NCBI GenBank assembly: GCA_902762495.1
Contig: CACWOL010000004.1
Coordinates: 355 to 64,354 of the forward strand
Reading direction: 5' to 3'
Source: an uncultured bacterium
GTDB taxonomy: Bacteria; Verrucomicrobiota; Lentisphaeria; Victivallales; UBA1829
Length of the DNA: 64,000 bases
A model generated the notes under the pieces. The model saw nothing but the letters and a program-made list of their open reading frames with translations. It did no database searches and was not told the DNA's origin. The position numbers and the translations under genes are program-made. Numbering within the stretch: the stretch's first letter is position 1; each line of letters starts with the position of its first letter. Positions 2,522 through 64,000 of this stretch are shown in pieces.

Positions 2522-2554
2522 TTCTCAATTGGGGGTGTGAAGTTGAGTTTCTGA

Positions 2555-18989: not shown

Positions 18990-19000
18990 AACGAATTTGT

Positions 19001-19063
19001 ACGTTCGCGACCGCGCTTCAGGAGGAGGTCAGACCGTTCGCCGTCCCGGACAAGCTCAAATAA
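19001..19063 (+). repeat. Orphan copy of the 3' end of gene 17075-18046
   Basis: 59/63 nt identical to 17984-18046. Confidence 0.95.
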
Positions 19064-19215
19064 CGATCCCGATGCAGGGCGTATCCGCGGGATTCGGGAC
19101 GATTCCGTCTTTTTTGTTGCAAGTCACTGTTTTTTTTTGATTTAGCTTGACTTTGCCCGTTACTTGTGATACTTTATAACAAAACATCATAAAGAACAGG
19201 GAAAAGGAACTCCGC

Positions 19216-47700: not shown

Positions 47701-49162
47701 TGCCTCCGACGGACTCAATGAGCGCAGGGTCCGCGCCCTTGCGTTCGATGGCCTCGAAGACCTCCTGCGCGCGCTTCTTTTCCACGATGGCGGCATCGAT
47801 CATCTTGCCGTTGATGTCCAGCGCCGCGCCGGTCACGGTGGCTCCTGCGGGCAGAGGCAGCGTGAATTCGCCTTCCAGCGCGAGCGGGTTCGGATTGCTC
47901 ACGACCGCCTCGAACTCCGTGCTGGCGATCTCGCCGCGGATGCGGACTTTCGCCGAGACCTCGGACACGACGACCGGGACCAGTTTCGGGTCGGCCGGAC
48001 GCGGCGGAGGCAGGATGCGGATCGGGGGCAGGATCACGCGCGGTTCGACGAACGGACGCGGACGGAGATACAGGTCTTGCGTTTCATTCATGGTTCTTGC
48101 TCCTTTTGTTCCTCCCGCGGCCGCAAGTGCCTGCGTCGCGGCAATTTTCATCTGGGGTGCGGATTCTTCCTTTGCAGCTGCACCCGGTTCGGAATTCGTA
48201 TCGGCAACGGCATTTTCCGGCTGAATCGTTCTGGCACGCGCATCACGAGCGGGAGCAGCGCCACCGCCGAAACCGCCGCCGAAGCCGCCAGCGGGAGCAG
48301 CACCGCCACCGAAACCGCCACCGAAACCACCGAAGCCACCGGCAGGACGATTACCTCTAGCAACACCGCCACCAAAGCCGCCGAAGCCGCCAGCGGGAGC
48401 AGCACCGCCACCGAAACCACCGAAGCCACCGGCAGGACGATTACCTCCAGCAGCACCGCCGCCCATCGGAGGCAGACCGCCGCCGAAGCCGCCCATACCG
48501 CCGGCAGGACGATTGTCTCCGGCAGGAGCAGCATCGCCTGCGGGAGCGGCACCGGCAACAGCCCCGCCGTCGGCAGGAACAACACCCCCGACGAAGGCAT
48601 CAGCAGCAGGAGCAGCGGCCTCGTCAGGTTCGGGATCGACAACGGCCATTCGGCGCGCATTCACTGCGGGCGCGACATTATCTTCGCGCGCCAAAGCCAT
48701 AGAAGCGGCGACCATCCCGCCGTCAAGCGATGCGCTTGCCTCCGCAGATTCCCTGTTATCCAGCATGGACATAAGGACCACCGATTCCGGCTCATTTTCT
48801 GTCGCTTTCGCTTTCATCAGGTTCGCGCCGTATGCGGCAGGAGTCTGCGCTTCAACGACCGTGTCGACGCCCGGCATGCCGTAGTTGTCGCTGCGGATCG
48901 CGGACGAATCGTCCTTCAGCGTGGTGAGCACGAGCTGGAAGGCCAGGAGGCAGACCGCGACGCCTGCCGCGGCCTTCCAGATCATGGGGAAATGAGGGCG
49001 TTCCTGCGCCTTCGCCGCCGCGAAGAAACGGTGTGTGAATTCGTCTTCCGGTGTGTAGATGCCGGACTGTTCGCGGACGTCGTGGCGCTCCTTCAGCTTC
49101 TGGAGCAGAGCGTCCAGGTCGCGCGCGCCGTTTTCGTTGCTGTCGGTGTTATGCTTCTTCAT
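44792..49162 (-). CDS. Large fusion: anti-sigma-like N-terminus/TM, Gly-rich linker, VIT domain, vWA-like domain, TPR, DUF2135-like domain, LysM
   Basis: VIT (NPNPLALEGEFTLPLPAGATVTG..A.IVEK), WDASGS/DGGT/FTDG (vWA MIDAS-like), TPR (APEEPQSYRDLA), WDTD..DMDLH..DITQGYGPEEF, and YQVRANETL..IA (LysM-like). Confidence 0.8.
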   Translation of the reverse strand: MKKHNTDSNENGARDLDALLQKLKERHDVREQSGIYTPEDEFTHRFFAAAKAQERPHFPMIWKAAAGVAVCLLAFQLVLTTLKDDSSAIRSDNYGMPGVDTVVEAQTPAAYGANLMKAKATENEPESVVLMSMLDNRESAEASASLDGGMVAASMALAREDNVAPAVNARRMAVVDPEPDEAAAPAADAFVGGVVPADGGAVAGAAPAGDAAPAGDNRPAGGMGGFGGGLPPMGGGAAGGNRPAGGFGGFGGGAAPAGGFGGFGGGVARGNRPAGGFGGFGGGFGGGAAPAGGFGGGFGGGAAPARDARARTIQPENAVADTNSEPGAAAKEESAPQMKIAATQALAAAGGTKGARTMNETQDLYLRPRPFVEPRVILPPIRILPPPRPADPKLVPVVVSEVSAKVRIRGEIASTEFEAVVSNPNPLALEGEFTLPLPAGATVTGAALDINGKMIDAAIVEKKRAQEVFEAIERKGADPALIESVGGNSYRTRIYPIPARGSRRIRITFISEVDRVDGTPIFTLPMRFENELEKASIRVEVMDPAAAPQVESAPFANLNFERWENALLGERTLENIALPEDLRITVADKPAPVQTERFGGENFFLVSATISAATNAADFKTPKSVSVLWDASGSRASNDHAPELELLKQFFASDKMKGATVDVNVSVLRNTLEPAKTFTVKNGDASALLDFLKKTACDGGTDFLGLEKFLAAVPADACAFVFTDGIQTFGKGAENIPAAKGRTAFVSVSTTSETSYLEYLADASGANALYLNLARMTPAAALASFLAGNPAALESVKIDGADADYEVSRSGEAVRIAGTFPDGKHKLEVKIAGLPAMAFDLDSAAAVDGRMIRTLYGMLKLEKAKRNPKTTPSEFLTLGQTYGLVTPGTSMLVLESLSQYLEYSIRPPETLPEWRAQYDERQAQIAKDKAKEKADAATEQDKRIDQLAKRYQSEIIDWYDGKKRPDPVFKCGFGGGGGIRPMNAAGGMGGFGGAAGGAAPGIGGFGGGFGGGAARRERASRDMEDGMAMDAMPVMEMAVEADASFERAPSAKKSDSSSNGASKSIKLNQWTSGASYLKELEDAKDKAQERYLELRAKKENADNLGFFVDCADYFARNGQREFAIRVVSNLAEMQLENRMLLRVLGYNLKYLGELDAAETVFRKVLELAPEEPQSYRDLALVFADAGRWQEAADMMLNAIVKKPDGRFRDVELIAITELNNFIVKAKRAGIELKDIDSRLVHPLEMDLRVTIGWDTDMSDMDLHTIDPTGEECFYQHRLTTNGGRNSFDITQGYGPEEFMVRNAMNGDYRIKTHYYGQRAQKMIGPVTLYAEIVTDFGRPEEKSETLMFRLATRDEMVDVATVTTKGSKVTPKEPERRYPPKNPVVDDRPVGGFGGGAAPDVSRMYQVRANETLEDIAESQLGDRSRAQEIARENADKLRDGQPVTGSIITLPPRNR

Positions 49163-49655
49163 AAGATACCTCCCGGATGGATTGGGCCAGTAATTGTTTC
49201 GCTTTGTGGATCCTCTGGTACAACGTGTTGCGAGTACAGCCCAGCATCGCGGCGGCCTCGTCCGGAGCGTATCCGGAAAGAACCCCGACCGACAACGATT
49301 CCCGGTAGAGTCTGGGGAGGCGGGCAACGGCTGCATCCAGCCGGTCCAGCAGGCTCGCTTCCTCGGCTGCCTCGCCGGACGCTGCGCCCGATTCCCCGTA
49401 ATCCGCCAGGACTTCGTGTTCCCGGGCACGATCACGCACCATGTCGTAGCACACGTTGATCAGGATTCTGGTCACCCAGGTCGCGAACTCCGACTGACCG
49501 TGGAACCCGGCGTACTTCCGCCAGGCGGTCATCAAAGCCTCCTGAACGGCGTCGTCAACGTCCGCCGGGCTGCCGAGGATCCGCATCGCGGTCCCACGGA
49601 GCAGTCCGAGCTTCTCTCTGATCAGCTGTTCGAAGACCTGTTCTCTGGTTTCCAT
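49149..49655 (-). CDS. ECF (sigma-70 family) RNA polymerase sigma factor
   Basis: DDAVQEA, FATWVTRILINVCYD, and region 4 (EAAAMLG..NTLYQRIHKAK); overlaps the downstream gene start. Confidence 0.92.
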   Translation of the reverse strand: METREQVFEQLIREKLGLLRGTAMRILGSPADVDDAVQEALMTAWRKYAGFHGQSEFATWVTRILINVCYDMVRDRAREHEVLADYGESGAASGEAAEEASLLDRLDAAVARLPRLYRESLSVGVLSGYAPDEAAAMLGCTRNTLYQRIHKAKQLLAQSIREVSYEEA

Positions 49656-49758
49656 AAATCCCTTTCAACACGTTTCTGACAATTAGACCCCCAAGACCGG
49701 GTAAATCTTAGCGTGTTTTCGGAAAAAAATCAAAAAAAACAAAAAAAAGTTCGAAAAA

Positions 49759-50538
49759 TCATTCCCCGGCGCCGTAATAGACCTCCAATATCAGTAAAAA
49801 CACCGAAATCAGATTGAATCCGGCATGGATCAGCATCGACGGAATGATGGATTTGCTCTTTTCGTATTGCCACTGCAGGAAAAGCGCCAGGATAAACAGC
49901 GGGACCACCGGCATCACGAGCATTTCCCACGGGAACGGCTTCGTCTGGATCATCGTCGGCAGCGACACATGGAACAGCGCGAACACCAGCGAGATCACGA
50001 CGGCCGCCTCTTTTCTATAAAGGAATACGCGAACGAACCGGTAGAAGATATGACGGAAGGCAAGTTCCTCGGTGATCGGCGCGGCGATCACGGAGATCAG
50101 CGCGAACCCGAAGAACGCCAGCGGCTTCAGCGTCCGGAAGAACTCCACGACGGACTGCTCCTTCGGTTCGTGTCCGACCGCCTTCAGCAGATACGTCAGC
50201 CCGGTCTGCGCGCCGAGCGTGGCGAGGACTGCCAGCACGAACACGGGGAACAGGAAGCGCAGGGAAAACTCGGGGGCCATGCTCAGGCCCATTTTATCTT
50301 TCAGCGAGTATTTCTGTTCCGTGCAAAGCGCGGCGGCCAGCACGGACAACACGACCAGGCCATCCTGGATCAGGAATTGCGCCGCCACCAGCATGTTCTT
50401 GCCCATGTGCGGCGACAGGGCTTTCACGATCTGCGCCGAGAACACGGCGTACGCGGCCCAGGTCAGCAGGATCAGCACGAACGCCGTGCAGACGAATGCG
50501 CTGCGGCGTCCGGTAAAGGTATCGTAGTTCAGTCTCAT
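49759..50538 (-). CDS. CPBP (CAAX protease/Abi) family intramembrane metalloprotease
   Basis: APITEELAFR, FALFH and HAGFN motifs. Confidence 0.9.
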   Translation of the reverse strand: MRLNYDTFTGRRSAFVCTAFVLILLTWAAYAVFSAQIVKALSPHMGKNMLVAAQFLIQDGLVVLSVLAAALCTEQKYSLKDKMGLSMAPEFSLRFLFPVFVLAVLATLGAQTGLTYLLKAVGHEPKEQSVVEFFRTLKPLAFFGFALISVIAAPITEELAFRHIFYRFVRVFLYRKEAAVVISLVFALFHVSLPTMIQTKPFPWEMLVMPVVPLFILALFLQWQYEKSKSIIPSMLIHAGFNLISVFLLILEVYYGAGE

Positions 50539-52034
50539 TTCGCTTCTCCAAGATGTTTTTCACGCAGATAACGCAGGAACGGCGCGGGATCCGGGACGGC
50601 GCTCCCGGTCAGGCGGCGCAGGAAATCGGACGGGGCGTACTTCGCGCCGAACCGGTAGATACGGTCGCGGAGCACGGACAGCGCATCGTGCGGCGTTTCC
50701 GGCAGGCCGTCGGCGAAAAGACGCTCCTTCAGCATCGCGCCGATCAGGTTGCCCAGCATGTACGTCGGGAAATACCCCACGCCGCCGCTGTACCAGTGGA
50801 CGTCCTGCAGCACGCCTTCGCGGTCGTTCGCGGGACGGATCCCGAAATACCGCTCGAACGTGTCGTTCCAGACCGCCGGAAGGTCGTCCACGGATATTTT
50901 ATCCTCGATGAGGGCCTGTTCCAGCTCCACGCGCAGGATGATGTGCAGGTTGTACGTCACCTCGTCGGACTCCGTGCGGATGAACGACGGCTGAACGAGG
51001 TTCACGGCCTTCAGGAAGGCTTCGAGCGGGACGTTCTTCAGGTTCGCGGGGAACGTGCGGACGAGGTCCGGGTAGAAATTGCGCCAGAATTCGGGCGAGC
51101 GCCCGAGGATGTTCTCCCAGAACCGCGACTGCGATTCGTGGAACGCCAGCGATGCGCCGTCGGAAAGCGGGGTCCCGGCGTATTTCCGCGCGATCCCCTG
51201 CTGGTACATCGCGTGGCCGCATTCGTGGATGCAGCTGAAAATGCAGTTCGCGGGCTCGTTGCGGCGCACGCGGGTCGTGATGCGGACGTCGTCCAGCCCG
51301 AAATCCGTGGTGAAGGGATGCGTGGAGAGGTCGAGGCGGCCGTGGGTGTAGTCGAACCCCATCGCTTCGGTCAGACGGCGGCAGAACGCCAGCTGGGCGT
51401 CCGCGTCGTAGTCGAGATGCAGGAACGAATCGTCGGGCGCGGGCTTCGCCATGATCTCGGCGAGGAGAGTTTCAAGGCCCTGTTTGAGCGGCGGGACGAT
51501 CTTGTCGAGCGTTTCGGACGTGAGCCCTTCCTCGTAGTCGTCGAGCATGGCGTCGTATCGGCTCCCCGCCTCGGGGAAACAGTCGGCGTATTCGCGCTGG
51601 AGCGCCAGCAGTTTTTTCAGGGAATCGGCGCAGAGACGGAAATCCGACGCGGCGTAGGCCGCCTCCCACGCCGCCTGCGTCTCGCCGTTCTGGCGCGCGA
51701 GGCGTCCGGCAAGCTCGGCGGGGACCGCCTGTTTCTTGCGGAGATCGCGTTCGAGGCGGCGGACCAGCGCGGCTTCGTCGCTGTCCGGTTCGAAATCCAT
51801 CGCGGCGGCCTCGCGGACCAGATCGGCGTAGGCCGGATCGGTCGATTTCCCGTGCACGATCACGGTCAGCGTTTCGAGCTGCTGCGCGCGCCCTGCCGCC
51901 GCGCCGGACGGCATGTAGACCTGCTGGTCCCAGCCGAGCACAGCGAGCGCCGCGTTCAGGTCGCGGATCTCGGCGCAGCGTTTCAGCAGCGGGGCCAGCC
52001 GGGGGTCCCAGGGCTGTTTCCGGCAGTCGGTCAT
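50535..52034 (-). CDS. Carboxypeptidase, family M32 (Taq type)
   Basis: HPF, DVRITT, HECGH, HESQSR, LQDVHW and GYFPTY motifs. Confidence 0.95.
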
Positions 52035-53470
52035 ACCCGGACTTCCTCCTCGGAGGATTTGCGGTCGGCGGCGTGCGCCTCAAGGGCGGGCTTCACGACG
52101 GTCGCGAGGTAGTCGGCGACCTGCTGGGACGCCATGCCGGTGAACGCCTCCGGCTTCAGGATTTCGTCGAAGCGGTCCGCCACGGAGGCGAAGAGCGGAT
52201 CGGTCTTGAGGCGGGCGATCAGGTCGTTTTCGCCGCCGCCCTCCTTCACGGTGCGCGCGGCCTCCATGGAGTGCATGCGGATGTGCTCGTGGAGTTCCTG
52301 GCGGTCGCCGCCGGCCTTCACGGCCTCCATGATGATGTTTTCGGTGGCCATGAACGGCAGTTCGGCGCGGATGTGGGCGGCGATGACCTTCGGCCACACC
52401 TGAAGCCCGTTCGTGATGTTCGTGAGCAGCGACAGGATCACGTCCGCGGTCAGGAACGCCTCGCCGATCACGATGCGGCGGTTCGCCGAATCGTCCAGCG
52501 TGCGCTCGAACCACTGCACGGACTCCGTGAGCGCGCAGTTCAGCGGCAGGCCGATCAGGTAGCGCGCCAGCGAGCAGACGCGTTCGCTGCGCATCGGGTT
52601 GCGCTTGTACGCCATCGCGCTGGAGCCGACCTGTTTCTTGCCGAACGGCTCCTCGATCTCCTTCATGTGCGCGAGCAACCGGATGTCGTTCGCCATCTTG
52701 GACGCGCTCTGGGCGATGCCGGAGAGGACCGCCAGCACGCCGTAGTCGATCTTGCGCGTGTACGTCTGGCCGCTCAGGCACACCGGATGCTCGAATCCCA
52801 TCTTCGCGGAGACCATGCGGTCGAGCTCGCGCACCTTGTCGCAGTCGCCGCCGAAAAGGTCCAGGTAGCTCGCCTGCGTCCCGGTGGTGCCCTTCGCGCC
52901 GCGGAACGGCAGTTCGTCGATGGCGCGGTCAAGCGCGGTCAGGTCGAACATGAAGTCCTGGATGTAGAGGGAGAAGCGCTTGCCGAGCGTGGTGAGCTGG
53001 GCGGGCTGGAAATGCGTGAAACCGAGCATCGGCATGGATTTGTGTTCGGCGGCGAACTTCGCGAGGTTGTCGATCAGGTCCAGCAGCTTCGAGCGCAGGA
53101 TCTTCATGCCGTCGCGCATCTGGATCAGCTCGGTGTTGTCCGTCACGAAGCAGCTCGTCGCGCCCAGGTGGATGATGCCTTTCGCCTTCGGGCAGACCTC
53201 GCCGAACGTGCGGATGTGGCTCATCACGTCGTGCCGCACCTCCGCCTCGATCCGCTCCGCTTCCTCGAAGTCGATATCGTCGAGGTGCGCGCGCATTTCG
53301 TTCAGCTGCTCGTCGGTGATCGCCAGTCCAAGCGCCTGTTCGCTCTCGGCGAGCGCGAGCCAGAGACGCCGCCAGGTGGAGTGCTTCCGCTGGGGCGAGA
53401 AATTGTAGCTCATTTCCTTGCTTGCGTAACGTCCGGTCAGGGGGTTCTGATAGGTCGTGTAATCCTTCAT
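52031..53470 (-). CDS. purB: Adenylosuccinate lyase
   Basis: RHDV, HLGATS, THFQPAQ and [11 protein letters not shown] motifs. Confidence 0.96.
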
Positions 53471-53616
53471 TCTGCGAACCTTTCGTGGGGGATGCCCGTT
53501 ATTTTATAATTATGGAATTGAATTTTCACAGCATTGAATATACACCATTTTTCCCGTTCTTCAACCGCGCGCGCCATTTTTCCTCAAATTTCCCCCGTTT
53601 TCTCCCAAAAAGGAAG

Positions 53617-53657
53617 CGCCGGACCCGGTTTCATTCGGATCCGGCACATTTGATGTC
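53617..53657 (-). repeat. Terminator-like hairpin; direct-repeat partner of 58899-58942
   Basis: CGCCGGACCCG..TCGGATCCGGC is present at both sites, each downstream of a minus-strand gene. Confidence 0.75.
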
Positions 53658-53690
53658 CTCTGTGGATGGGTGTCAACAAAACACCGTTTT

Positions 53691-56462
53691 TCACACGATG
53701 TGCGATCCCTCGAAGATGCGTTCCGAGGTAAAGTCGAGGAAGGCTCCGATAGAGGACAGTGCGGCGAATTGGGCGGAACCGTCGTCGCCGAATTTGAGCG
53801 TGATCTGTTCTGCCGCGACGCCGGAGACCTTGACGCTGTTGTCGCCGTCCATATAGGTCAGCGTTTCTGCATTCCAGTTCGCTTCACTGCCGGATGCGAA
53901 CCACAGCGTGACGGTGCCTGACACGAGCTGTTCCACATTATCCACGCCCCAATTATCGCAGAAGGTGAAGACATCCTCACCACCGCCACCGTGCAAGCGG
54001 TCATTTCCAATGCCACCGGCGATCACATCATTGCCGGATGCACCGACAATGCGGTCGTTTCCAGCATCACCGAACAGGAAATTGTCGCCCTTGTTTGCCC
54101 AGATGGTATCGTTGCCTTCACCACCTCGAATCGTCAGACCTTCGCCGATGTACTCGAACCGTTGACTGGTCATGTCTACGATGTCGGCACCTGCACCAGC
54201 TCTGATTTCGTCAATTTGAGCGATACGCGACTGTTTCTCTGCAACATTCCCTGGAGACGCCGTGTAAATATCGTCCACGAATAACGTATCGCCGTTGTCA
54301 TCATCCGTCATGAGCAGGATGTTCGCATCGGTCGAGCCTTCGATGATGTCCGCAAGCTTGTTCTTGCCGGAAACAGAGGCATACTCGTTCGTTCCAGCCC
54401 AATCGTTGATAGATCCGACGTGCTGCGCCAGATAACCAGATTCCCAAGTGCCGACAGCATTGGCGAAGAATACATCCGCATTACCGTCTGCATCGGACTT
54501 GATGAGTTGCGGTTTAATGTCGCTCTCGGGAGCAACGATTGGATCGCCAGTCATCCATTCACTGCTGCCATCCTGCTTAACGCGCATTTGATATGTGCCA
54601 GTCGGCATACGGAAGGCATCAAGCGAGGGTGTCGTGACCGCGAATGTGATTACATGCTCGAAGTTGTCCGGACTGTATTCGACAGTGTACGGCTTGAAGC
54701 CAGAGACAGTAAACGCATCTCCAGTTGTCACTGCGGATTCATTGCCTGCGAAGTCCACCGCCTGCACACTCCAGCTGTAGGATCCGAAGTCAGCGTTGTT
54801 CAGCACATAATTCGTGTTGCTCGTCCTGACGGAGAACACCAGATCATTGATCAAATAGGTCACGACGTACTCCTTGACTCCGGACTGATTGTCCGTGCTT
54901 CCATTCCAGAGCAACGCGACATCCTGTCCTTCGACAAACGCCCTAACACCTGCCGGATCACTTGGGGCGACCTTGTCAATATTGGAAACTGTGTAGCTGA
55001 CGACCTCGGATTCATTCCCAGATGTATCTACAGCCTTGAAATAGACGGTTCCGTTTTCCCTCACGGTCACACCATCCACATATGCGGACCACTCGCCAGC
55101 CTCGCCGAGCTTGAACAGGGATTGTGCCAGTTCAACGTCATCGGCGAAATCCGCCGTCAGCACGACATCCTGATTCGTCAGTGTGGTTGTGCTCGCTTGA
55201 ACATTCGACACTGTCGGAGCTGTAGTATCCGGCGGTATGGGCCCTGCGACACTCAAAAAGAGGGTTTCATCGCAAATCTGCAACGTGTAAGTGTCTTCGC
55301 CTACTTCAAACGATTCCCCGACTTTGAGCGTACCAAGGGATTTCCCCGTTGTATTCTTTACCGTAATCGTACCGTCGAATTCAGACGCTGCATCTGCAAG
55401 CCTGTAGATGCCCGTTTCCTGATTGTCTTTGACTGCAATCGTGTAGTCCGGTGTCCCCTGAATCAGCGACCAGTCACTCAACAACGCTTTTTTTTCTTCA
55501 TCACTCTGTGTTAAGTCAAAAACAATAAGCGCCCCATCTTCGACCGTACATAAAGCTCCATTTTCGATATTAATCTTTCCTGTAATTATTCCACCAGCAA
55601 AGATTTTTACAGTGCCACCAATGGATACAACGAGATTATTAAGCAAACCTCCAGAAGAAACAAAAACTTGTCCACTATGTTTTATCTTAGTTTCATTCGC
55701 TACTCCACCACTAAAAACATATATGTTTCCACCGGAGTTTGCAGTTATATCATTCCCTGTTGTTGAGGAGTGAATAGTTGTAATAGCATCAGAGATGGAT
55801 AAATCAGAAAAAGTATTAGAGAGAAAAGAACATGTTCCTCCTTCTTGGATATCAACAGCTCCACCATTTTCGACAAAAGATTCCCCTTTTCCCCTTTTAT
55901 TTATCCTAATACGGCCACCAGCATTGACAAGGACATGATTCGCAACGCCATCATTTATCCACATGCTTCCGCCATTGTTTATTACAGTATTATTTGCTGT
56001 TCCCAACTCAATTTGAACGCTCCCACCGGAGTTAACTATGGTACTATCTGCTATTCCACCCCAGATATCAAACAAACCATTTTTATATATTTCTGTGTTA
56101 GTAGCAGTTCCACCGGAATAAACGTGAAATCCGCCCTTACTGTTGATAATTGTACTATCCGCAACTCCCCCAGAAATGCCAACCCAACCACTACTGTTGA
56201 GAATAGTTCGAGTCAACTGCCCACCAAAAACATGAATAGAACCAGAGTTAGCTATGGTATTATTTACAACACCACCAGAAGAAATAAGCATACGGCCTTT
56301 TGAAAGCGTAGTGCTATTCACAGCACCTCCGGAAGAGACAAACATATCACCACTTTTGATTGTAGTAGACAGGGCTATTCCTCCGTCAAGAACAGTCATT
56401 GTATCATTTTCAAGAATAATTCCGCTACTGACTTCGCCATTGGGAACAATGTATTCAGCCAT
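53691..56462 (-). CDS. AIDA-like repeat beta-helix protein with Ig/Fn3-like domains and RTX-like Ca-binding repeats (probable T1SS-secreted surface protein)
   Basis: SSGGxANSTTVNSGG-type repeats; DTTAPTV..AVDTSGNES..IDKVAP; GGEGNDTI/GDAGNDRI/GGIGNDRL nonapeptides; no signal peptide. Confidence 0.8.
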   Translation of the reverse strand: MAEYIVPNGEVSSGIILENDTMTVLDGGIALSTTIKSGDMFVSSGGAVNSTTLSKGRMLISSGGVVNNTIANSGSIHVFGGQLTRTILNSSGWVGISGGVADSTIINSKGGFHVYSGGTATNTEIYKNGLFDIWGGIADSTIVNSGGSVQIELGTANNTVINNGGSMWINDGVANHVLVNAGGRIRINKRGKGESFVENGGAVDIQEGGTCSFLSNTFSDLSISDAITTIHSSTTGNDITANSGGNIYVFSGGVANETKIKHSGQVFVSSGGLLNNLVVSIGGTVKIFAGGIITGKINIENGALCTVEDGALIVFDLTQSDEEKKALLSDWSLIQGTPDYTIAVKDNQETGIYRLADAASEFDGTITVKNTTGKSLGTLKVGESFEVGEDTYTLQICDETLFLSVAGPIPPDTTAPTVSNVQASTTTLTNQDVVLTADFADDVELAQSLFKLGEAGEWSAYVDGVTVRENGTVYFKAVDTSGNESEVVSYTVSNIDKVAPSDPAGVRAFVEGQDVALLWNGSTDNQSGVKEYVVTYLINDLVFSVRTSNTNYVLNNADFGSYSWSVQAVDFAGNESAVTTGDAFTVSGFKPYTVEYSPDNFEHVITFAVTTPSLDAFRMPTGTYQMRVKQDGSSEWMTGDPIVAPESDIKPQLIKSDADGNADVFFANAVGTWESGYLAQHVGSINDWAGTNEYASVSGKNKLADIIEGSTDANILLMTDDDNGDTLFVDDIYTASPGNVAEKQSRIAQIDEIRAGAGADIVDMTSQRFEYIGEGLTIRGGEGNDTIWANKGDNFLFGDAGNDRIVGASGNDVIAGGIGNDRLHGGGGEDVFTFCDNWGVDNVEQLVSGTVTLWFASGSEANWNAETLTYMDGDNSVKVSGVAAEQITLKFGDDGSAQFAALSSIGAFLDFTSERIFEGSHIV

Positions 56463-56531
56463 TTTGAATTCACCATTTGTTATCTGTTATTGTTCATTTG
56501 AATTCGGAAAGAATTCGTCGTTTGCAAGTCC

Positions 56532-57140
56532 TTATCGAATCAAATCACATAACGACAAATGTTCCCCATCTGTCGTCTTTCTTATAAAAGCCTGTTCTGG
56601 AGTTATATTGCTTACTGGTCGTGTATAAGGAATATCTTCTGAAATTGGCGGCATAACCGCATCGTGTAAAACAACAAAGTATCTTCTATAATCGTTGCCT
56701 AAAATATAACATCGATGGAAACGAGCAAGAATTGCATGAAGAAAATCCAACAAACAGGAACTGCTTCTTAGCTGTGATACATAGTCTTCATAATTGTCCC
56801 CCTCCATTTGCGGAGTTGTTGCTACCGCTGATTGAGAATGTACAGAGGATTTTAGTTCAACAAAAACAGCAACCTTGTTGCCTTCAAATTCCGATAATAG
56901 GATATAGTCGCACTGCACGCCCCCATATCCACTAGTAAAGTATTTCATTTTTGTTTTATCCGGTTTTAGTGCCAGATAATTTGGTGTCAAATCAGAAACA
57001 AATACCCTTCTTAAAGTCGCATGTTCTCCTCGCTCTTCCAAAACAAAAGAATCAGAAGAATAATTTCTTTTTACACTATCCAAAAGGACTTTATTCAGCA
57101 AAGATATTTCTTTTGCTGTTGGCTTGATATTACTCGCCAT
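56532..57140 (-). CDS. Hypothetical protein with a PD-(D/E)XK-like motif
   Basis: CDYILL..VFVELKS..SQL; AAAGGAGG RBS inside the ATPase 3' end; AT-rich. Confidence 0.6.
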   Translation of the reverse strand: MASNIKPTAKEISLLNKVLLDSVKRNYSSDSFVLEERGEHATLRRVFVSDLTPNYLALKPDKTKMKYFTSGYGGVQCDYILLSEFEGNKVAVFVELKSSVHSQSAVATTPQMEGDNYEDYVSQLRSSSCLLDFLHAILARFHRCYILGNDYRRYFVVLHDAVMPPISEDIPYTRPVSNITPEQAFIRKTTDGEHLSLCDLIR

Positions 57141-58482
57141 AAAGGATCCTCCTTTGAAGCGCGTTGACCTCGCGAATAGATTCGTCAAAACTAGTAACTT
57201 CAATGCCATATTTTTGATTGATATCCATTTGCTTTACTGTACCATCTTCAGCGATATAGCATTTGACTTTTTTGGGGGATAGCAGACAATTAAGATGTTT
57301 TTTATCATAGCCCAGTTCTTTTACAATATTCTTTAACCGGGGCGATTTGGCATTGTTTAACATGATCAAAGTGTTAAGTTCGCGGATAATATAATCGCTA
57401 TGAGTTGTAACAGCGACATAAATATCTGCATTCACCAGCATTGCTAGCAGTCGTGCGATTTTTCTTTGATTTTCAGGATGCAAATTCAGCTCAGGCTCGT
57501 CAATGACTAAGCATTGGGCATATTTGGATTTGTGTTTCAAATAAAAGTTAAGTTCCATTAAAGAACGTACCGAACTAGAACTTTCCAACATTGTCAATCC
57601 TGTATTTGTACCAAATGGAACAAATGTTACAATGTTGGGTTCTACTAGACGATACTCGCCTCCAACAATACTAGCAAAATATTCTAATATTTCTGGGTGT
57701 TTTTTTGCTATATACCCTTTTTCTTGAATTGCTTCATCAAAGCGGCATACGAATTCCAAATCCTTGTTCATTGGGCGGGGATGTCCGCGAAAGTCCATTT
57801 TTTGATACAATTCTTCTATTTTCTGATCAACATTTTCCTGTTTTGAAGAAACAGATCTTGAAACAACAAAATCAGTGCGAAACGCCGCTGCACCCGTCCG
57901 TTCACAGGTTATAATAAACAATTCAGGAATTGCAGTTTTCAAAACAGCAATCAAAGAGTTCGTTAAAACTTGTGTTATTACATCTTGATTCGGCAATTCA
58001 TGAGCGTTGTTGTACAATGAAACATCTAAGTATTTTTTTTCTTTTTCCTTAATAACATTTATTGTACAATCCTTTAATGCAGGAATATTCCAATTGAAAT
58101 GGACATATTTCATGACAGCATTTTGGCGTTTCTTTTCGACATGCAAAGAAAGCTTTGTGTTTTTGTATAAATCTTCATGAGCCGCCATTTGTCTTGCCAT
58201 TTCATTTTTTATCCAAGGCGCCATAGATGATTCAATGTATTGATTAATATTGCTTAAAAATGGCTCAAGGGGGATGCTAATCTTCCCTTTTTCCAGAAGC
58301 TGTTCCGCATATTGATTATCCATGGGAACTTTCAAGTAGTAATGAATAGCATCAATATAGTTAAACGCATTATAGGTTATATATGTTTTTCCTGTATTGT
58401 TTTTTCCGCACAAAATAGTCAAATCACCGAATTCTAATTCGGCATTTTTGATTAAACCGGCATTTTGAATTGTAAATTTCAT
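57130..58482 (-). CDS. ABC-fold (AAA_15/AAA_21-like) ATPase
   Basis: Walker A CGKNNTGKT, degenerate signature SSSSV, Walker B/D-loop VIDEPELNLHP, H-loop TTHS; AAGGAG RBS; AT-rich. Confidence 0.9.
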   Translation of the reverse strand: MKFTIQNAGLIKNAELEFGDLTILCGKNNTGKTYITYNAFNYIDAIHYYLKVPMDNQYAEQLLEKGKISIPLEPFLSNINQYIESSMAPWIKNEMARQMAAHEDLYKNTKLSLHVEKKRQNAVMKYVHFNWNIPALKDCTINVIKEKEKKYLDVSLYNNAHELPNQDVITQVLTNSLIAVLKTAIPELFIITCERTGAAAFRTDFVVSRSVSSKQENVDQKIEELYQKMDFRGHPRPMNKDLEFVCRFDEAIQEKGYIAKKHPEILEYFASIVGGEYRLVEPNIVTFVPFGTNTGLTMLESSSSVRSLMELNFYLKHKSKYAQCLVIDEPELNLHPENQRKIARLLAMLVNADIYVAVTTHSDYIIRELNTLIMLNNAKSPRLKNIVKELGYDKKHLNCLLSPKKVKCYIAEDGTVKQMDINQKYGIEVTSFDESIREVNALQRRILYGE

Positions 58483-58603
58483 ATAAAAAACTCCTTGGTA
58501 TATCAAAAAGAAATCAGGCGTTGTGTGCACAATTTTTTAAATAAAACGGCAAAAATGAACTTGGCATGAGGAAACATGAAGGATAAATATGGTCCCAGTC
58601 GCT

Positions 58604-58632
58604 AATATACCCCCCTTCCCAGGAAAAATCAA
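58604..58632 (-). promoter_or_regulatory. sigma70 promoter upstream of the ATPase operon
   Basis: TTGATT-17 nt-TATATT on the minus strand. Confidence 0.55.
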
Positions 58633-58892
58633 ATGGTTTTTCTGTTTTTTTAATCTTTTTCAGCTTTTTATAGTGGGAAAGGACGCGATGCGTCCCCGCT
58701 TCGCCGGGGGCGGCTTTGCCGCCTCGGTAGCCTCGCTTACGCTCGGCGACTTTTTTAGATTACTGCTGAGGCGCGAGAGGCGGAGCCTCCGCTGCGGAAG
58801 TGTTCTGCTATGCGAGAACACGAAGACCGCGGAGCGGATTATGCAATCAGGGCAGGCGCAGGCAGACGGTCTGGCGGAGGCAGAATCCGAGC

Positions 58893-58930
58893 AGAAAACG
58901 CCGGACCCGAGTTTTGTCGGATCCGGCGCG
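58893..58930 (-). terminator. Terminator of the GH43 gene
   Basis: CGCCGGATCCGA-CAAAAC-TCGGGTCCGGCG-TTTT on the minus strand. Confidence 0.75.
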
Positions 58931-58956
58931 ATTGATCATGTCGTCAGGTATGGAGA

Positions 58957-61077
58957 TCAATCCTTCGGCAGGTTGGTGCCCCATTTTTTCATCAGGGCGT
59001 CGTACTCGGTCTGGCCGAGCGTGATGACGCCGCCGTGACGGAACCGGTACGGGAACTCCAGCCCGCGTTCGGACGGGGCGAAATCGCCCTTCGAGAGGTC
59101 GTCGCAGAAGAACGCCTTGTAGCCCTGGCCGCGCGAATAGTAGTCGATGATCATGCACCAGCGGCCGTCGGCCATGCGGAAGCATTCCGGCCCCTCGTAG
59201 CCGACGAAGTTCTTCACGGGGAATCCGGGCACGGGCTTCCATTCGCCCTCGAGCGAATCGGAGACCTCCAGGATGATGGATTTCTGCGTCTCGTCCTTGG
59301 AGAACCGGTAGAGCTTGCCGCCCTCGGACACGATGTCGGTGTCGATGATGTCGTTCGGCTTCTCGATGTAGAGTTTCGCCGGGGTGAACGTCTTGAAGTC
59401 CTTCGTGCGGGCGGAGTAGATGCGCTGGCGGTTCGAGCCGTTCAGCGTTTCGCGCGACGCCCAGAAGACGAAGAACTCTTTCTTATCGGCGTCCCAGAAC
59501 GCCTCCGGGGCCCACGTGCAGCCCGCGTTCGGCACGGCGACCTCCACGCGGCGCGGCTCGCTCCAGTTCACCATGTCCTTGGACTCCCACACGATGATCG
59601 CCTTGCTGCCCGCGCGCTGGGCGCGTCCCCAGTCGCCATTGCGCCCGATGCACAGGTCGGTCGCGATGAGGTAGATCATGCCGTTGTCGGGATTGCGGAC
59701 GATATACGGATCGCGCACGCCGCCTTCGCCGAGGTTGCTCTGAAGCACGGACTTCCCGCCGTTCAGCGGCTGCCACTTCGCGCCGTCCTTGCTGATGGCG
59801 AAGAAGATCTGTTCCCATTCGTTCGAGCGTTCGCCGCGGAAGTGGGCGAAGAGATAGCCCGCGGTCTTGCCGTCTCCGGCGGGCTTCGCGGCGTCATTTT
59901 TCGAGGCGGCGGCGGGGGCCGGTGCGAGCTGCGCGGGCAGTTTCCAGGTCTTCTGGTACTTCGCGACCGGCTTTTCGCCCTCCCATTCGAGCGGGAGCCA
60001 GATGTACTGGCTGGTCATCAGGTTCTGCGGCTTCCAGCTGTCCAGCATCACCACACGTTCTTCCTTGCCGTCCTTGCCCGGCACGGTGAAGCTGTGCGCC
60101 GTCTGCCCCTCGTAGGTGCGGTCAGCGCCCTGCCCGACCGCGAAATTGCCGAGTTCGCGCCACGGCCCGGTGATCTTGTCGGCGACCGCGGTACGCCCGG
60201 GGTTCGGATTCCAGCCGGTGCAGTGCGAACCGAGCAGGTAATACTTGCCGTCGTGACGGAACACGACCGGCGCTTCGTAGGATTTCCCCTCGAGGATGCG
60301 CCACCAGCGGCCGGTGAATCCGGTGTACTCGTCATTCAGCTCCACGATGTGCATGGTCTGGTTGTTCTCCGACGCGCAGAAGAGATACGCCTTGCCGTCG
60401 TCGTCCACGAACACCGTCATGTCGCGGCTTTCCTGACCGGGCTGGTAATTCTCCACGAGGCGCGCGAACTGCCGGTCGTAGGTCTGCGATTTCCCCTCGG
60501 CGTAATCCTTCAGTCCGGCGGGCAGATTGACCGGCCAGGTGCCCGGCGCGGTGCGGCCGCTGTAGAGGTGCTTGAACGGTCCGGTCGGCGAGTCGGCGAT
60601 GCCGCAGCCCACGAACGCGGAGTTGTAGTTGCCGCCGGATTCCTGATGGAACCACAGCACATACTTTTTCGTTTTCGCGTTGTAGACCACCTTCGGACGC
60701 TCGATGTTCGCCCCGAACGAGAATCCGAACCCGCGGCGTCCGCCGGGCTGCTGTCCCTGCGTCTGCATGGTCGCGGAATCAAACACCAGCCCTTCGTCTT
60801 TCCAGTTGTAAAGGTCTTTCGAGCTGTACGCGTGCACCCCGGTCTTCCGGTCGCGCGTGCGGTGTTCGCCGTACCAGTAGTAGGTGTCGCCGACTTTCAG
60901 CATGCAGCCGCCGTGCGCGCTGATGTGCGCGCCGTTGTTGTCCGGCCAGACTGTGGCATGGTTCGTGAATTCGCTCAGCTTGGGGACGCTGTTCTGTGCG
61001 GACGCGGTGAACGCCGCGGCGCAGAGCATGACGGCGGCCGCGACCGCCGGACGGATGAGATTCGTGCGGAAAAACAT
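58957..61077 (-). CDS. Secreted tandem GH43-GH43 glycoside hydrolase
   Basis: Domain 1: AHGG..YYWYGE..IERPKV..SRDM (exo-beta-1,3-galactanase-like). Domain 2: YLFAHF..GVRDP..TWAPE..IDT..EGP..RHG. Confidence 0.88.
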   Translation of the reverse strand: MFFRTNLIRPAVAAAVMLCAAAFTASAQNSVPKLSEFTNHATVWPDNNGAHISAHGGCMLKVGDTYYWYGEHRTRDRKTGVHAYSSKDLYNWKDEGLVFDSATMQTQGQQPGGRRGFGFSFGANIERPKVVYNAKTKKYVLWFHQESGGNYNSAFVGCGIADSPTGPFKHLYSGRTAPGTWPVNLPAGLKDYAEGKSQTYDRQFARLVENYQPGQESRDMTVFVDDDGKAYLFCASENNQTMHIVELNDEYTGFTGRWWRILEGKSYEAPVVFRHDGKYYLLGSHCTGWNPNPGRTAVADKITGPWRELGNFAVGQGADRTYEGQTAHSFTVPGKDGKEERVVMLDSWKPQNLMTSQYIWLPLEWEGEKPVAKYQKTWKLPAQLAPAPAAASKNDAAKPAGDGKTAGYLFAHFRGERSNEWEQIFFAISKDGAKWQPLNGGKSVLQSNLGEGGVRDPYIVRNPDNGMIYLIATDLCIGRNGDWGRAQRAGSKAIIVWESKDMVNWSEPRRVEVAVPNAGCTWAPEAFWDADKKEFFVFWASRETLNGSNRQRIYSARTKDFKTFTPAKLYIEKPNDIIDTDIVSEGGKLYRFSKDETQKSIILEVSDSLEGEWKPVPGFPVKNFVGYEGPECFRMADGRWCMIIDYYSRGQGYKAFFCDDLSKGDFAPSERGLEFPYRFRHGGVITLGQTEYDALMKKWGTNLPKD

Positions 61078-61268
61078 GGAAAAAACTCCTTGTTGAAGGG
61101 GTGAAACATTCATTTTCTGAATAATAGCATAACTTACATTCCATCCGGCAAAAAAACAAGCTGGATTCTTATCTTTTTAGAAAAAAGATTTCCGAAACCC
61201 TTGTTTTTTTACATTTGAAGCGTTACTGTAAATGCACGATCATTTCATCCGATGAAAGGACAAGGTGA

Positions 61269-62147
61269 ATGATGACAAAACGAAACATCATGCTGTTTCT
61301 CGCGTTCCTTGCCGTCTGTCTGGGCGGAACGGGATGCATGGCATGTTCGAAAGCTTCGATGAAATGGACCGGCAGAAAAGAGGTCCGGTTCAAGGACATC
61401 GAGTACGAGCTGTCTCCGGACAAGCAGGAACTCATCCTGACCTACGAACGCGAAAGAAAATGGTACGTTATCCCGCTGACATGGATATGCTTTGAGATCA
61501 TGCGGGACGTGCCGCCGGCCATGACTTCCGTTCAGACATTCGAAAAACACATTTCCCTCGACCCTATGCCGGACGAACTGGCAAAGAAGTATGTGGACGT
61601 TACGGTCGATCCAGCCGCGCCGAAGAAACGTTATCACTCCCGCTGGACGGATATGCCGTATTTCGACTACCATTTTCTGCACTATGTCGTGAGGCCGAAC
61701 GATCCCTTCAAAGATTTCAAGACTTATGAAGAGTTTCTGAAGGTCTATCCGCAGTTTTTATATGCGGCGACGGTTCACCCGGACGAGTTTCCGGACCTGT
61801 CCGAACCCTGGGTCCAGTCCGGCCCCAGCCCAATGATCTTCTATGGCCGCGACGGAGACCGGTATATTTACATTTCACCGGTGAGGAGCGGATGGTACGG
61901 AGTCGATTTTCCGCCCAGAGAAGACTACTCCGGATATGACAGGAAGGAGTATCTGGTCATGAAAGCCGATTCCTTCGACTGGTGCTGGAAAGTGATCTGG
62001 GCGCCGGTCGGACTCGTCGCGGACGTGGTGCTGCTGCCTGTGTCAATTCCGCTCTATTGTCTCGGGCGCATGCTTGATGGGGCTTACGGTTCGCATAGGA
62101 CCAGAGTTTGGCAGGATATGCAATTCTGGGATGATATCTACCGCTGA
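61269..62147 (+). CDS. Hypothetical putative lipoprotein
   Basis: Signal peptide ending GTG-C; C-terminal PVGLVADVVLLP resembles YceK/YidQ-type lipoproteins. Confidence 0.6.
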   Translation: MMTKRNIMLFLAFLAVCLGGTGCMACSKASMKWTGRKEVRFKDIEYELSPDKQELILTYERERKWYVIPLTWICFEIMRDVPPAMTSVQTFEKHISLDPMPDELAKKYVDVTVDPAAPKKRYHSRWTDMPYFDYHFLHYVVRPNDPFKDFKTYEEFLKVYPQFLYAATVHPDEFPDLSEPWVQSGPSPMIFYGRDGDRYIYISPVRSGWYGVDFPPREDYSGYDRKEYLVMKADSFDWCWKVIWAPVGLVADVVLLPVSIPLYCLGRMLDGAYGSHRTRVWQDMQFWDDIYR

Positions 62148-62305
62148 CGGACCGCCGGCACCCGGCGGCTTGAAACGACGATCAAAAGATGCCTGTCCCG
62201 GCGCGGAACCGGAACAGGCTTTTTATTCTGATTTCAAAGCATCGGATTCATCCGTCGAGCCTTTGCCGCAAAAAGGCAATAAGAACTCCAGCTCAACGGA
62301 TTATA

Positions 62306-62330
62306 ATTTTGGACTCACTGAGTCCAAAAT
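62306..62330. promoter_or_regulatory. Perfect 12-1-12 palindrome, operator-like
   Basis: ATTTTGGACTCA-C-TGAGTCCAAAAT overlapping TTGGAC-16-TATAAT on the minus strand. Confidence 0.55.
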
Positions 62331-62342
62331 CCTGATGCCGCC

Positions 62343-63980
62343 TCACTTGATTTCGTTCTGCATGGCAACGAGCTTGTCGGCGCCGTACATCTTGCGGAGT
62401 TTCGGCTTTTCGATCTTTCCGGTCGGGTTGCGCGGGACCTCGGCGAAGATGATCTTGCGCGGACGCTGGTAGCGCGGCAGGTCGAGGCAGAAATCGTTGA
62501 CCTGTTCCTCGGTGAGCGTGAAGTCCGGCTTGACCTCGATGATCGCGGCGGCGATTTCGCCGAGGCGCGGATCGGGGAGACCGATGACGGCGACGTCCTT
62601 GATGGCGTTGTTGCGGCGGAGGAAGTCCTCGATCTGGACGGGATAGAGGTTTTCGCCGCCGGTGATGATGACGTCCTTCTTGCGGTCGACGAGGTAGATG
62701 AAGCCGTCCTCCTCCTTCGCCATGTCGCCGGTGTAGAGCCAGCCCTCGTCGTCGAGGACCTCCTTCGTGGCCTTTTCGTCCTTGTAATAGCAGCGCATCA
62801 CGCCGTCGCCCTTCACCGCGAGCTCGCCGACCTTGCCGGGCTCGACGGGGTTGTGCTTCTCGTCGACGATTTTGGTCTGCCAGCCGTAGCCCGCCACGCC
62901 GATCGCGCCCACGTGGTCGATGTTCTCGATTCCGAGGTGCACGGCACCCGGTCCGATGGATTCGCTGAGGCCGTAGTTGGTGTCGTAGTCGTGCTTCGGG
63001 AAGACGGTCTTCCAGCGCTTGATGAGGCTGGGCGGGACCGGCTGCGCGCCGATGTGCATCAGACGCCACTGGTCGAGCTTGTAGTCCTCCAGCTTGATGT
63101 CGCCGCGGTCAATGGCGTCCAGGATGTCCTGCGCCCACGGCACGAGCAGCCAGACGACCGTGCAGTGTTCCTCGGAGACCGCGCTGATGATCCATTCAGG
63201 CTTGATGCCGCGCAGGAGCACGGCCTTGCCGCCGACCAGGAAACTGCCGAACCAGTGCATCTTCGCGCCGGTGTGGTACAGCGGCGGGATGCAGAGGAAC
63301 GTGTCCTCGCGGGTCTGGCCGTGGTGCTTCTGCTCCACGATGCAGGCGTGCATGAGGCTGCGGTGTCGGTGTACGATGGCCTTCGGGAATCCGGTGGTGC
63401 CGGAGGAGAAGTAGATCGCGGCGTCCTCGTCGTCGGAGAGCGGGATCGCCGGGGACTTGCTGGAGCAGTAGGAAACGAGGTTGTAGTACGGCTCGGCGAA
63501 CGACGGGCAGTCCTCGCCGACGTAGACCAGCGCCTTCACGCGCGGGATGCGTTCGCAGATGGACTCCACGCGGCCGATGAACGACGGTCCGAAGATGAGC
63601 ACGTCGATGTCGGCGAGCTCGATGCAGTATTTGATCTCCTCGGCGGTGTAGCGGAAGTTCAGGGGAACGGCCATCGCGCCGCTCTTCAGCACGCCGAAGT
63701 AGATCGGGAGCCATTCGAGACAGTTCATGAGCAGGATGCCCACCCGGTTGCCCTTCTTGATGTGGCGCGTGAGCAGGAAGTTCGCCACGCGGTTCGCCTT
63801 GCGGTCGAATTCGCCCCAGGTGAGTTCGGAGCGGAACGAGTCGGTCGGGCTCGGCTCCATCAGCGAGTATTCACGCCAGGTCGTGTGGCGTTTTTCGAGT
63901 TCCTGCGGGTTGATCTCCACCAGCGCGACGTCGTCTTTGTAGAGCTGGGCGTTGCGTTCCAGAATTTCGGTGATAGGCAT
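62343..63980 (-). CDS. AMP-dependent acyl-CoA synthetase (class I adenylate-forming enzyme)
   Basis: FSSGTTGFPK, YGLSE, WLYTGD, DRKKDVIITGGEN and PTGKIEK motifs. Confidence 0.95.
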   Translation of the reverse strand: MPITEILERNAQLYKDDVALVEINPQELEKRHTTWREYSLMEPSPTDSFRSELTWGEFDRKANRVANFLLTRHIKKGNRVGILLMNCLEWLPIYFGVLKSGAMAVPLNFRYTAEEIKYCIELADIDVLIFGPSFIGRVESICERIPRVKALVYVGEDCPSFAEPYYNLVSYCSSKSPAIPLSDDEDAAIYFSSGTTGFPKAIVHRHRSLMHACIVEQKHHGQTREDTFLCIPPLYHTGAKMHWFGSFLVGGKAVLLRGIKPEWIISAVSEEHCTVVWLLVPWAQDILDAIDRGDIKLEDYKLDQWRLMHIGAQPVPPSLIKRWKTVFPKHDYDTNYGLSESIGPGAVHLGIENIDHVGAIGVAGYGWQTKIVDEKHNPVEPGKVGELAVKGDGVMRCYYKDEKATKEVLDDEGWLYTGDMAKEEDGFIYLVDRKKDVIITGGENLYPVQIEDFLRRNNAIKDVAVIGLPDPRLGEIAAAIIEVKPDFTLTEEQVNDFCLDLPRYQRPRKIIFAEVPRNPTGKIEKPKLRKMYGADKLVAMQNEIK

Positions 63981-64000
63981 CGTGTTTCTTTCCGTGTGTT

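Follow-up and report, generated by a model that had tools for sequence, protein, structure and literature searches.

A low-GC two-gene ATPase and nuclease operon in an uncultured gut bacterium is a probable phage-defence system of the PD-T4-4/PDC-M47 family

What is the function of two overlapping, AT-rich genes that lie in an otherwise high-GC genome? The question is raised by a stretch of 64,000 nucleotides (nt) from an uncultured gut bacterium of the Lentisphaeria (contig CACWOL010000004.1, positions 355 to 64,354), which is referred to here as the window. The two genes are both on the minus strand. Gene A (57133–58482) encodes a 450-amino-acid (aa) ATPase of the ATP-binding cassette (ABC) type, and gene B (56535–57140) encodes a 202-aa partner protein. 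A first-pass annotation, made from the DNA alone, described a two-gene operon in an AT-rich islet, in which an ATPase is coupled to a PD-(D/E)XK-like protein, as a candidate defence or abortive-infection system, and it regarded the system as unnamed. Both open reading frames (ORFs) are present where the annotation placed them and the proposed functional class is supported by the analyses below. The description as unnamed has to be given up on the annotation's own terms, as the PD-T4-4 and PDC-M47 profiles of PADLOC match the pair. The pair is a divergent member of an already named anti-phage family (PD-T4-4, PDC-M47, WonAB-like). We put the probability at roughly 0.8 that the operon is a horizontally acquired two-component anti-phage system of this family, with an ATPase switch, a nuclease effector and an abortive-infection outcome.

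Gene A starts with the ATG at 58482–58480 and ends with a TAA stop codon at 57132–57130; the ribosome binding site AAGGAG (58496–58491) is 8 nt 5' of the ATG. The ATG of gene B is inside the final codons of gene A, resulting in an 11-nt overlap, and AAGGAGG is found just 5' of the gene B start, in agreement with the first-pass description of a ribosome binding site and start codon that overlap the end of the ATPase gene. The gene B stop codon is at 56532–56534. A and B are probably translated together because the genes overlap. Two adjacent co-oriented genes with the ATPase gene first represent the PD-T4-4 arrangement, which also occurs on E. coli plasmids and in Vibrio phage. The neighbours of the pair are an AIDA/RTX repeat protein gene and a GH43 enzyme gene as determined by Pfam, and no membrane or transporter gene adjoining gene A is found among them, as had been noted. 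The weakest point of the earlier description is the operon's own promoter. The region upstream of gene A (58483–58632, minus strand) does have one sigma-70-like -35/-10 pair, at 58632–58604, that scores 9 of 12 in a promoter scan, but the region holds 4 promoter-like sites compared with a mean of 8.4 in shuffled sequences, i.e., they are rarer than expected by chance. The site is therefore not evidence by itself, and its assignment as the operon promoter is a guess.

The gene A protein displays a Walker A motif (G26-KNNTG-K32-T33), a signature-like sequence (S301-SSSVRS307), a Walker B motif that continues into the D-loop (L325-VIDEPELNLHP336) and an H-loop (T359-THS362). The Walker A and B motifs, D-loop and H-loop had been seen previously, and an alignment with 30 homologues (35–91% identical, picked from at least 120) shows that their key residues do not vary. 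Invariant positions are G26 and N28-N29-T30-G31-K32-T33 in Walker A, the E194-R-T-G197 motif, R306 of the signature-like SSSSVRS, D328-E329-P330-E331 and L334-H335-P336 in Walker B and the D-loop, and T360-H361-S362-D363 at the H-loop; S302-S303 are invariant or nearly so. Intact ABC ATPase motifs from Walker A through the H-loop, including the signature, are a property that gene A shares with PD-T4-4 ATPases. Pfam matches are to AAA_15 (1.1e-22, residues 2–366) and AAA_21 (1.8e-9), the latter limited to residues 316–366 from Walker B to the H-loop. The AlphaFold2 model has a mean predicted local distance difference test score (pLDDT) of 85 and a predicted template modelling score (pTM) of 0.85. 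When compared with the PDB by Foldseek it matches 223 chains at E ≤ 0.001. The best matches, with E values from about 1e-10 to 1e-8, are to PtuA proteins from Septu and retron systems (about 4e-10) and to Rad50. By sequence, solved relatives (UvrA, OLD and PtuA) give motif-level matches alone. The motifs, the Pfam matches and the likeness of the model to PtuA and Rad50 therefore identify the gene A product as a soluble ABC ATPase related to OLD, PtuA and Rad50, and not as a subunit of a transporter.

The resemblance to the Rad50 fold raises the alternative of a housekeeping role, i.e., as the ATPase of a transporter or as a repair factor like RecF, RecN or SbcC that has an accessory nuclease, with no part in defence. 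There are faint NCBIfam matches to transporter ATPases, RecF and RecN (E 3e-4 to 0.1) that would fit such a role. These matches are short, and the scores are 11–26 bits compared with curated cut-offs of 170–500; the transporter ATPase models give 12–20 bits against cut-offs of 190–330, and the PtuA model gives 26 bits against a cut-off of 500. With these scores and no adjacent membrane subunit, gene A does not qualify as a transporter component. A housekeeping function is very improbable, and the distribution of the pair among related genomes, described below, is also a poor fit to it.

The gene B protein contains C77-D78-Y79, E95-L-K97 and Q123-L124. These are the motifs given in the first-pass annotation, with a corrected spacing: D78 and E95 are 16 residues apart and not about 12. 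D78, E95 and K97 represent the PD-(D/E)XK catalytic residues, as in PD-T4-4 partners. Pfam gives no match to gene B at E ≤ 1, TOPRIM and HNH domains included, and NCBIfam and PHROGs yield nothing usable. A word-indexed protein search found 29 proteins at E ≤ 0.001, which are gene B itself and 28 others with identities of 41–62%. When gene B was aligned with 21 homologues (n = 22), C77-D78-Y79, E95, K97-S98 and Q123 were invariant. A profile of the gene B alignment matched 395 clusters at E ≤ 0.001, 113 of them at E ≤ 1e-10, in a library of 1.84 billion proteins. In a wider alignment, made of 85 of at least 150 cluster representatives, the sole invariant residues are D78 and K97, with E36, L43, C77 and L200 nearly so.

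In the AlphaFold2 model of gene B (pLDDT 79, pTM 0.83), D78 opens strand 79–85 (beta2) and E95-x-K97 closes strand 88–97 (beta3). These are followed by a long helix (119–142) that bears Q123 and then by strand 152–159, an order of strands and helix that we take to be the canonical PD-(D/E)XK arrangement. No solved relatives were found by sequence (best E 1.3). A Foldseek search with the model, a check proposed in the first-pass annotation, returns weak rows that are mostly restriction-fold nucleases and include BsmI, Nt.BspD6I, BamHI, FokI, Cas4 and AddB. Gene B is thus read as a PD-(D/E)XK-type nuclease, an assignment to which the structure searches lend weak support.

The profiles of PADLOC-DB provide the family assignment, and the results for the pair are profile-level matches. 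Gene A matches PDC-M47A with 396.8 bits (3.4e-119, profile positions 1–460 of 461) and the PD-T4-4_A model PDLC04033 with 371 bits (2.3e-111), where residues 1–449 align with positions 1–457 of 460, i.e., over the whole length. Another PD-T4-4_A model, PDLC04032, gives 218 bits (6.7e-65). Scores to related ATPases are lower, with 87 bits for AriA (4.3e-25) and 33–54 bits for PtuA, GajA and Old. Gene B matches PDC-M47B with 33.8 bits (6.4e-9; the three models give 6.4e-9, 2.5e-8 and 2.9e-7) and the PD-T4-4_B model PDLC04034 with 24 bits (6.5e-6, residues 30–200 on 25–188 of 190). Both proteins of the pair therefore match PDC-M47 profiles. The PD-T4-4_B match is weak for the single protein and firmer at the family level: PD-T4-4_B is matched by 62 of 85 gene B representatives and PDC-M47B by 79 of 85, while all 30 gene A homologues match both PDC-M47A and PD-T4-4_A.

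The same searches uphold the earlier statement that the pair is not PARIS, Septu or Gabija: the AriA, PtuA and GajA profiles give 33–87 bits to gene A compared with about 370–397 for its own family, and gene B has no TOPRIM or HNH match. PARIS (AriA/AriB) was considered and rejected, as gene B has neither a TOPRIM domain in Pfam nor an AriB match in PADLOC and the AriA score is 87 bits against 397 for gene A's own family. Septu (PtuA/PtuB) was also rejected, as neither Pfam nor PADLOC gives an HNH match for gene B and the PtuA score is far below its cut-off.

A pair of genes on an E. coli IncX1 plasmid was used as a prototype-like comparator. Its scores, 862 bits for PD-T4-4_A and 357 bits for PD-T4-4_B, indicate that it is close to the PD-T4-4 prototype. 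Gene A aligns end to end with the plasmid ATPase, with 26% identity and an E value of 5e-39. When the gene B family profile is compared with the prototype-like PD-T4-4_B by hhalign, the probability is 97.4% (E 1.5e-11) and the C-D-Y and E-L-K of gene B are placed opposite C-D-L and D-Q-K. The full-length alignment of A and the hhalign match of the B family place the window pair, by sequence comparison, in a distant branch of the PD-T4-4 superfamily. PDC-M47 and PD-T4-4 overlap so heavily at the profile level that both look like one superfamily. The PDC-M47 clade is spread over cyanobacteria, Poribacteria, Desulfobacterota and Methanosarcinaceae.

The association of A with B is conserved over long phylogenetic distances. 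A scan of one genome per species yielded 80 loci with ATPase homologues 33–38% identical to gene A. The hosts include cyanobacteria, Poribacteria, Desulfobacterota, Chloroflexota, Gemmatimonadota and Methanosarcinaceae. A homologue of gene B, recognised by the B profile at E ≤ 1e-3, follows on the same strand at 75 of these loci, with its start no more than a few bases from the ATPase stop codon; 76 of the 80 loci have at least 600 nt of downstream room. In the genome of a P2-like Vibrio phage a pair is flanked by the repressor gene and the integrase gene, and small E. coli and Klebsiella plasmids of 4–5 kb bear homologous pairs. The plasmids are places where a toxin-antitoxin-like addiction module would make sense, with a toxic nuclease B curbed by A and a pair that mainly stabilises its carrier mobile DNA in place of sensing phage. 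The AAA_21 match of gene A, annotated as "putative AbiEii toxin, type IV TA system", points the same way, but it spans just residues 316–366. We consider an addiction module improbable, and further evidence on it comes from the content of the islet and from WonAB, both described below.

Flanking genes of the homologues were analysed for a sample of 14 loci, chosen for taxonomic spread and complete flanks, in which 115 flanking ORFs were compared with Pfam. Clear defence neighbours are present in 4 of the 14 loci. In Desulfobulbus rhabdoformis (NZ_JAFFQA010000032.1) the pair is embedded in a BREX cluster, between brxC and the gene for an Eco57I-type (pglX-type) methylase; BrxA and BrxB are also encoded upstream, and PglZ downstream. 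In a metagenome-assembled genome of the Bryobacterales the genes on either side of it encode an N6_N4 DNA methylase and a ResIII protein. In both of these loci a defence pair is embedded in another defence system. At a third locus the pair is between type I restriction-modification genes and a TOTE conflict-system primase-helicase, and at the fourth it adjoins SLATT/DUF4231, DNA methylase and PIN genes.

Composition and comparative analysis show that the operon is located in an insert. The GC content is 0.33–0.39 over positions 55400–58600 compared with 0.62–0.70 in the flanks, and GC at third codon positions (GC3) is 0.32 in gene A and 0.28 in gene B compared with 0.85–0.92 in five flanking genes that were measured. 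These values bear out the earlier observation of an islet far more AT-rich than its host. The inserted islet is approximately 5.24 kb (53655–58892) and comprises the AIDA/RTX gene, genes B and A and a GC-rich stretch; its limits come from empty sites in four same-genus genomes and from composition. It sits between the GH43 gene and purB. The distance from the GH43 stop codon to the purB start is 5.5 kb in the window, compared with 207–344 bp with nothing between in the four genomes, whose GH43 and purB proteins are 92–94% and 98–99% identical, respectively, to those of the window. Imperfect 44-nt direct repeats with a terminator-like hairpin flank the insert, the left copy at 53611–53654 and the right copy at 58893–58936, just downstream of the GH43 stop codon. 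The two are 77% identical to each other. The repeat core pattern has 2 matches in the window and 0 in shuffled sequences, and just these 2 sites are present in the 2.76-Mb assembly. An alignment with two of the empty sites reveals a single terminator-like hairpin after GH43, where the window has a copy on each side of the insert.

A search of 40 related genomes, among them 15 of the same genus that are 69–94% complete, found no real match to the gene A ATPase; three of the 40 show just hits at about 1e-4, and these fall on the Walker B region of other ATPases. The absence of real pair matches from all 40 genomes and the location in a foreign insert are ill-fitting for a core cellular function and argue against the housekeeping alternative. 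The islet is also without replication or transfer genes that an addiction module could stabilise. In an independent ruminant-gut run, DNA contigs tile the whole insert and both junctions, with 0–4 differences per contig among the matches listed. The insert is foreign, horizontally acquired DNA. No Rfam match at E ≤ 1 is present in 53300–59100. The hairpin repeat was considered as a dif/Xer-type site and rejected by eye: its arms differ in a relative, in a manner closer to a drifting hairpin than to a conserved recombinase site, and it is placed like a terminator after the GH43 stop codon. The route of entry is not explained by the content of the insert, where a terminator hairpin is duplicated with no integrase or transposase.

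Near-identical copies of the locus are found in ruminant gut metagenomes, in at least 20 runs from 15 studies. Ten of the runs hold at least half of the sampled words, and 2 of the 20 may be the source of the window DNA. Among contigs from RNA libraries, one of 192 nt is identical to a segment inside gene A, and others are about 90–94% alike over A and B.

How such a pair would act can be judged from its characterised relatives, within the available text of each source. PD-T4-4 was recovered in E. coli by functional selection for defence against T4; it is phage-protective and is carried in an integrative and conjugative element (ICE)-like element of strain ECOR58 (PMC9519451). A review (PMC10952713) places it under PF13175 and PD-(D/E)XK nuclease, another source groups it with PD-(D/E)XK nuclease-NTPase systems (bioRxiv 10.1101/2025.07.10.664194), and a third lists it among ABC-ATPase defence systems (bioRxiv 10.1101/2024.01.29.577857). 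WonAB, the functional model that has been studied best, consists of an OLD-type ABC ATPase and a variant PD-(D/E)xK nuclease, and its defence depends on both genes, on the ATPase motifs and on the lysine of the nuclease (PMC12137116). It is described as lysis-independent abortive infection, and growth is arrested at high multiplicity of infection, as is typical of that mode. The WonB protein is unstable and its loss is Lon-dependent. The authors relate WonAB to PD-T4-4 and to an "OLD-ABC ATPase + novel REase" operon present in 0.96% of genomes.

By analogy with these homologues, we infer phage protection, complex formation, ATP dependence, an abortive mode and an RNA target for the window pair. 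The gene A protein would form a dimer, arranged head to tail around two ATP sites, that serves as sensor or switch, and the gene B protein, a small PD-(D/E)XK nuclease with D78, E95 and K97, would be the effector. The two proteins most likely associate in a complex that stays inactive as long as the cell is uninfected. In response to a phage cue, B would be licensed in an ATP-dependent manner, and licensed B would cut nucleic acid, so that infection is stopped and the infected cell is sacrificed.

The nature of the target is the point on which the data from relatives bear most directly. The main rival to an RNA target is direct DNA cleavage, in which the ATPase of a system of the same family recognises phage DNA or a replication intermediate, B cuts phage DNA in the manner of a restriction enzyme and the cell survives. 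The gene B core is of the restriction-endonuclease type, and its weak structural neighbours BsmI, Nt.BspD6I, McrC, SdaI, NucC and HamA are DNA nucleases. PtuA and Rad50, the structural relatives of A, act on DNA, and 7 of 11 systems with a DNA binding or cleavage-type component, often PD-(D/E)XK-like, gave direct immunity according to the available text of Vassallo et al. 2022 (PMC9519451). Against this, purified EcPD-T4-4 formed higher-order complexes by mass photometry and cut 0 of 11 DNA substrates, for which the authors propose a missing viral cue or an RNA/tRNA target (bioRxiv 10.1101/2025.07.10.664194, available text). When WonB is overproduced, translation comes to a stop and the genomic DNA remains intact, and WonAB causes growth arrest at high multiplicity of infection (PMC12137116, available text). 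Direct immunity is unlikely on this evidence. Because of the WonAB and EcPD-T4-4 data, an RNA of the translation apparatus is favoured over bulk DNA as the target of B, with about an even chance of being correct if the operon is a defence system. The WonAB data also bear on addiction. WonB is toxic if overproduced, as a toxin would be, but this toxicity requires active WonA, and the authors take simple sequestration as ruled out (PMC12137116, available text).

Several observations weigh against the assignment of the operon to an abortive anti-phage system of this family. Gene B has no significant similarity to the prototype-like PD-T4-4_B by BLAST (E 3.8) and its own PD-T4-4_B score is just 24 bits; transfer of function from PD-T4-4 therefore spans a long distance. 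The gene B model has no Foldseek match in the PDB at E ≤ 0.001, and its best Z score in a wide VIA-align search, 4.8 to nuclease domains of Upx, Can2 and BsmI with McrC, SdaI, NucC and HamA lower, is under the informative level given for the tool and can be due to chance. The name PDC-M47 is absent from the literature searched and is a PADLOC candidate name alone, and so it brings no experimental knowledge. Phage protection is known for E. coli PD-T4-4 and WonAB and not for the window clade, and WonAB is likened to the window pair through the statement in the available text of PMC12137116 that WonAB resembles PD-T4-4 operons, not by sequence. One source says in passing that PD-T4-4 has an HNH nuclease (bioRxiv 10.64898/2026.07.10.737580, available text); this disagrees with the other papers and with the sequences here. 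As for the genomic neighbourhoods, 10 of the 14 sampled loci do not show a clear defence association: seven have housekeeping or unknown neighbours and three are marginal, with just a Uma2 or HNH gene some kilobases away. The defence neighbourhood, counted without a background rate, is thus qualitative support. Pfam and PADLOC find no integrase, transposase or other defence gene in the islet, and no tRNA genes were found in 48000–64000, which indicates that this is not a tRNA-targeted island. The contigs from RNA libraries may be DNA, and support for expression is thin.

A more speculative reading, which we regard as having the odds against it by a wide measure, is that the PDC-M47 clade may be a functionally separate system beyond a variant of PD-T4-4. 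In such a system an OLD-type ABC ATPase would license a PD-(D/E)XK enzyme that cuts RNA, and trigger and target would be its own; as a separate part of the same reading, the islet would have entered without an integrase of its own and duplicated a terminator hairpin. The reading preferred here is the family-level one, an ATPase switch with a nuclease effector of the PD-T4-4/PDC-M47/WonAB-like kind. In practical terms it corrects the annotation of the operon, which can be labelled as probable phage defence within a named family, carried here by an uncultured high-GC bacterium of the gut. The window pair shows the reach of the family. A very divergent member, in a partner family with just D78 and K97 invariant, could help to define the minimal conserved core. 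The finding itself opens no new question.

Other features of the islet are not part of the proposed defence system. The AIDA-repeat/RTX-repeat protein gene (53691–56462, minus strand, 923 aa, identified by Pfam) is considered cargo. It was examined as a third component and rejected, as it has no PADLOC match and a neighbour of this type is present in 0 of the 14 sampled homologous loci. The gene is a mosaic, with GC3 values of 0.23–0.31 in the first approximately 300 codons, like the defence pair, and 0.55–0.66 in the remainder. Most of the homologues that have a source name come from Lentisphaeria, a hint of the host's own lineage. Between the region upstream of the operon and the right repeat is a GC-rich, hairpin-rich stretch (58640–58895) that has partial copies at 12 other places in the genome with 76–91% identity; it resembles a family of short, host-type intergenic repeats.

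Elsewhere in the window, an ORF that is open at the window start (2–2554, plus strand) matches the PADLOC JetC3 (Wadjet) profile at 3.8e-117 over positions 649–1165 of 1471. This JetC3-like gene runs off the window, beyond which the contig extends a further 354 nt. A JetD gene would be expected downstream; no plus-strand ORF of at least 100 aa is present within 4.2 kb. Genes with lower GC3 (0.67–0.74) and no Pfam or PADLOC match are found in the regions 61269–62147 (plus strand) and 18201–20133. One such ORF is 292 aa and is located just past the GH43 gene.

A comparison with known systems summarises the position of the operon. With PD-T4-4 of E. coli ECOR58 (PMC9519451, available text) it shares the order of an ATPase gene followed by a gene for a partner of about 200 aa, an ABC ATPase of OLD type with AAA_15/AAA_21 domains, a partner with a PD-(D/E)XK core that aligns motif to motif, and carriage on mobile DNA, an ICE-like element in ECOR58 and an insert in the window. 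It differs from the prototype-like PD-T4-4 in having E-L-K in place of D-Q-K in gene B and in a gene A that is just 26% identical. Gene A also scores best on the second PD-T4-4_A model, PDLC04033, whereas the model of the prototype is PDLC04032, and the host is a high-GC gut bacterium compared with an enterobacterium for the prototype. PDC-M47, a candidate system of PADLOC-DB v2 (models PDLC04664–04669), provides the best profile match for both window proteins. WonAB, from the WASA-1 prophage of Vibrio cholerae, is similar as a two-gene operon on mobile DNA with an OLD-type ABC ATPase and a variant PD-(D/E)xK nuclease; the available text of PMC12137116 states that WonAB and PD-T4-4 differ in ATPase inserts and a C-terminal extension and, in some cases, in the nuclease. 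PARIS, Septu, Gabija and P2 OLD belong to the same ABC-ATPase clade, as the AriA, PtuA, GajA and Old profiles all match gene A. They share the logic of the window pair, in which an ATPase is joined with a nuclease effector, and of the solved structures those of PtuA match the gene A fold best. All four differ from the window pair in the effector, since gene B is without a TOPRIM or HNH domain and has in its place the PD-(D/E)XK residues that it shares with PD-T4-4.

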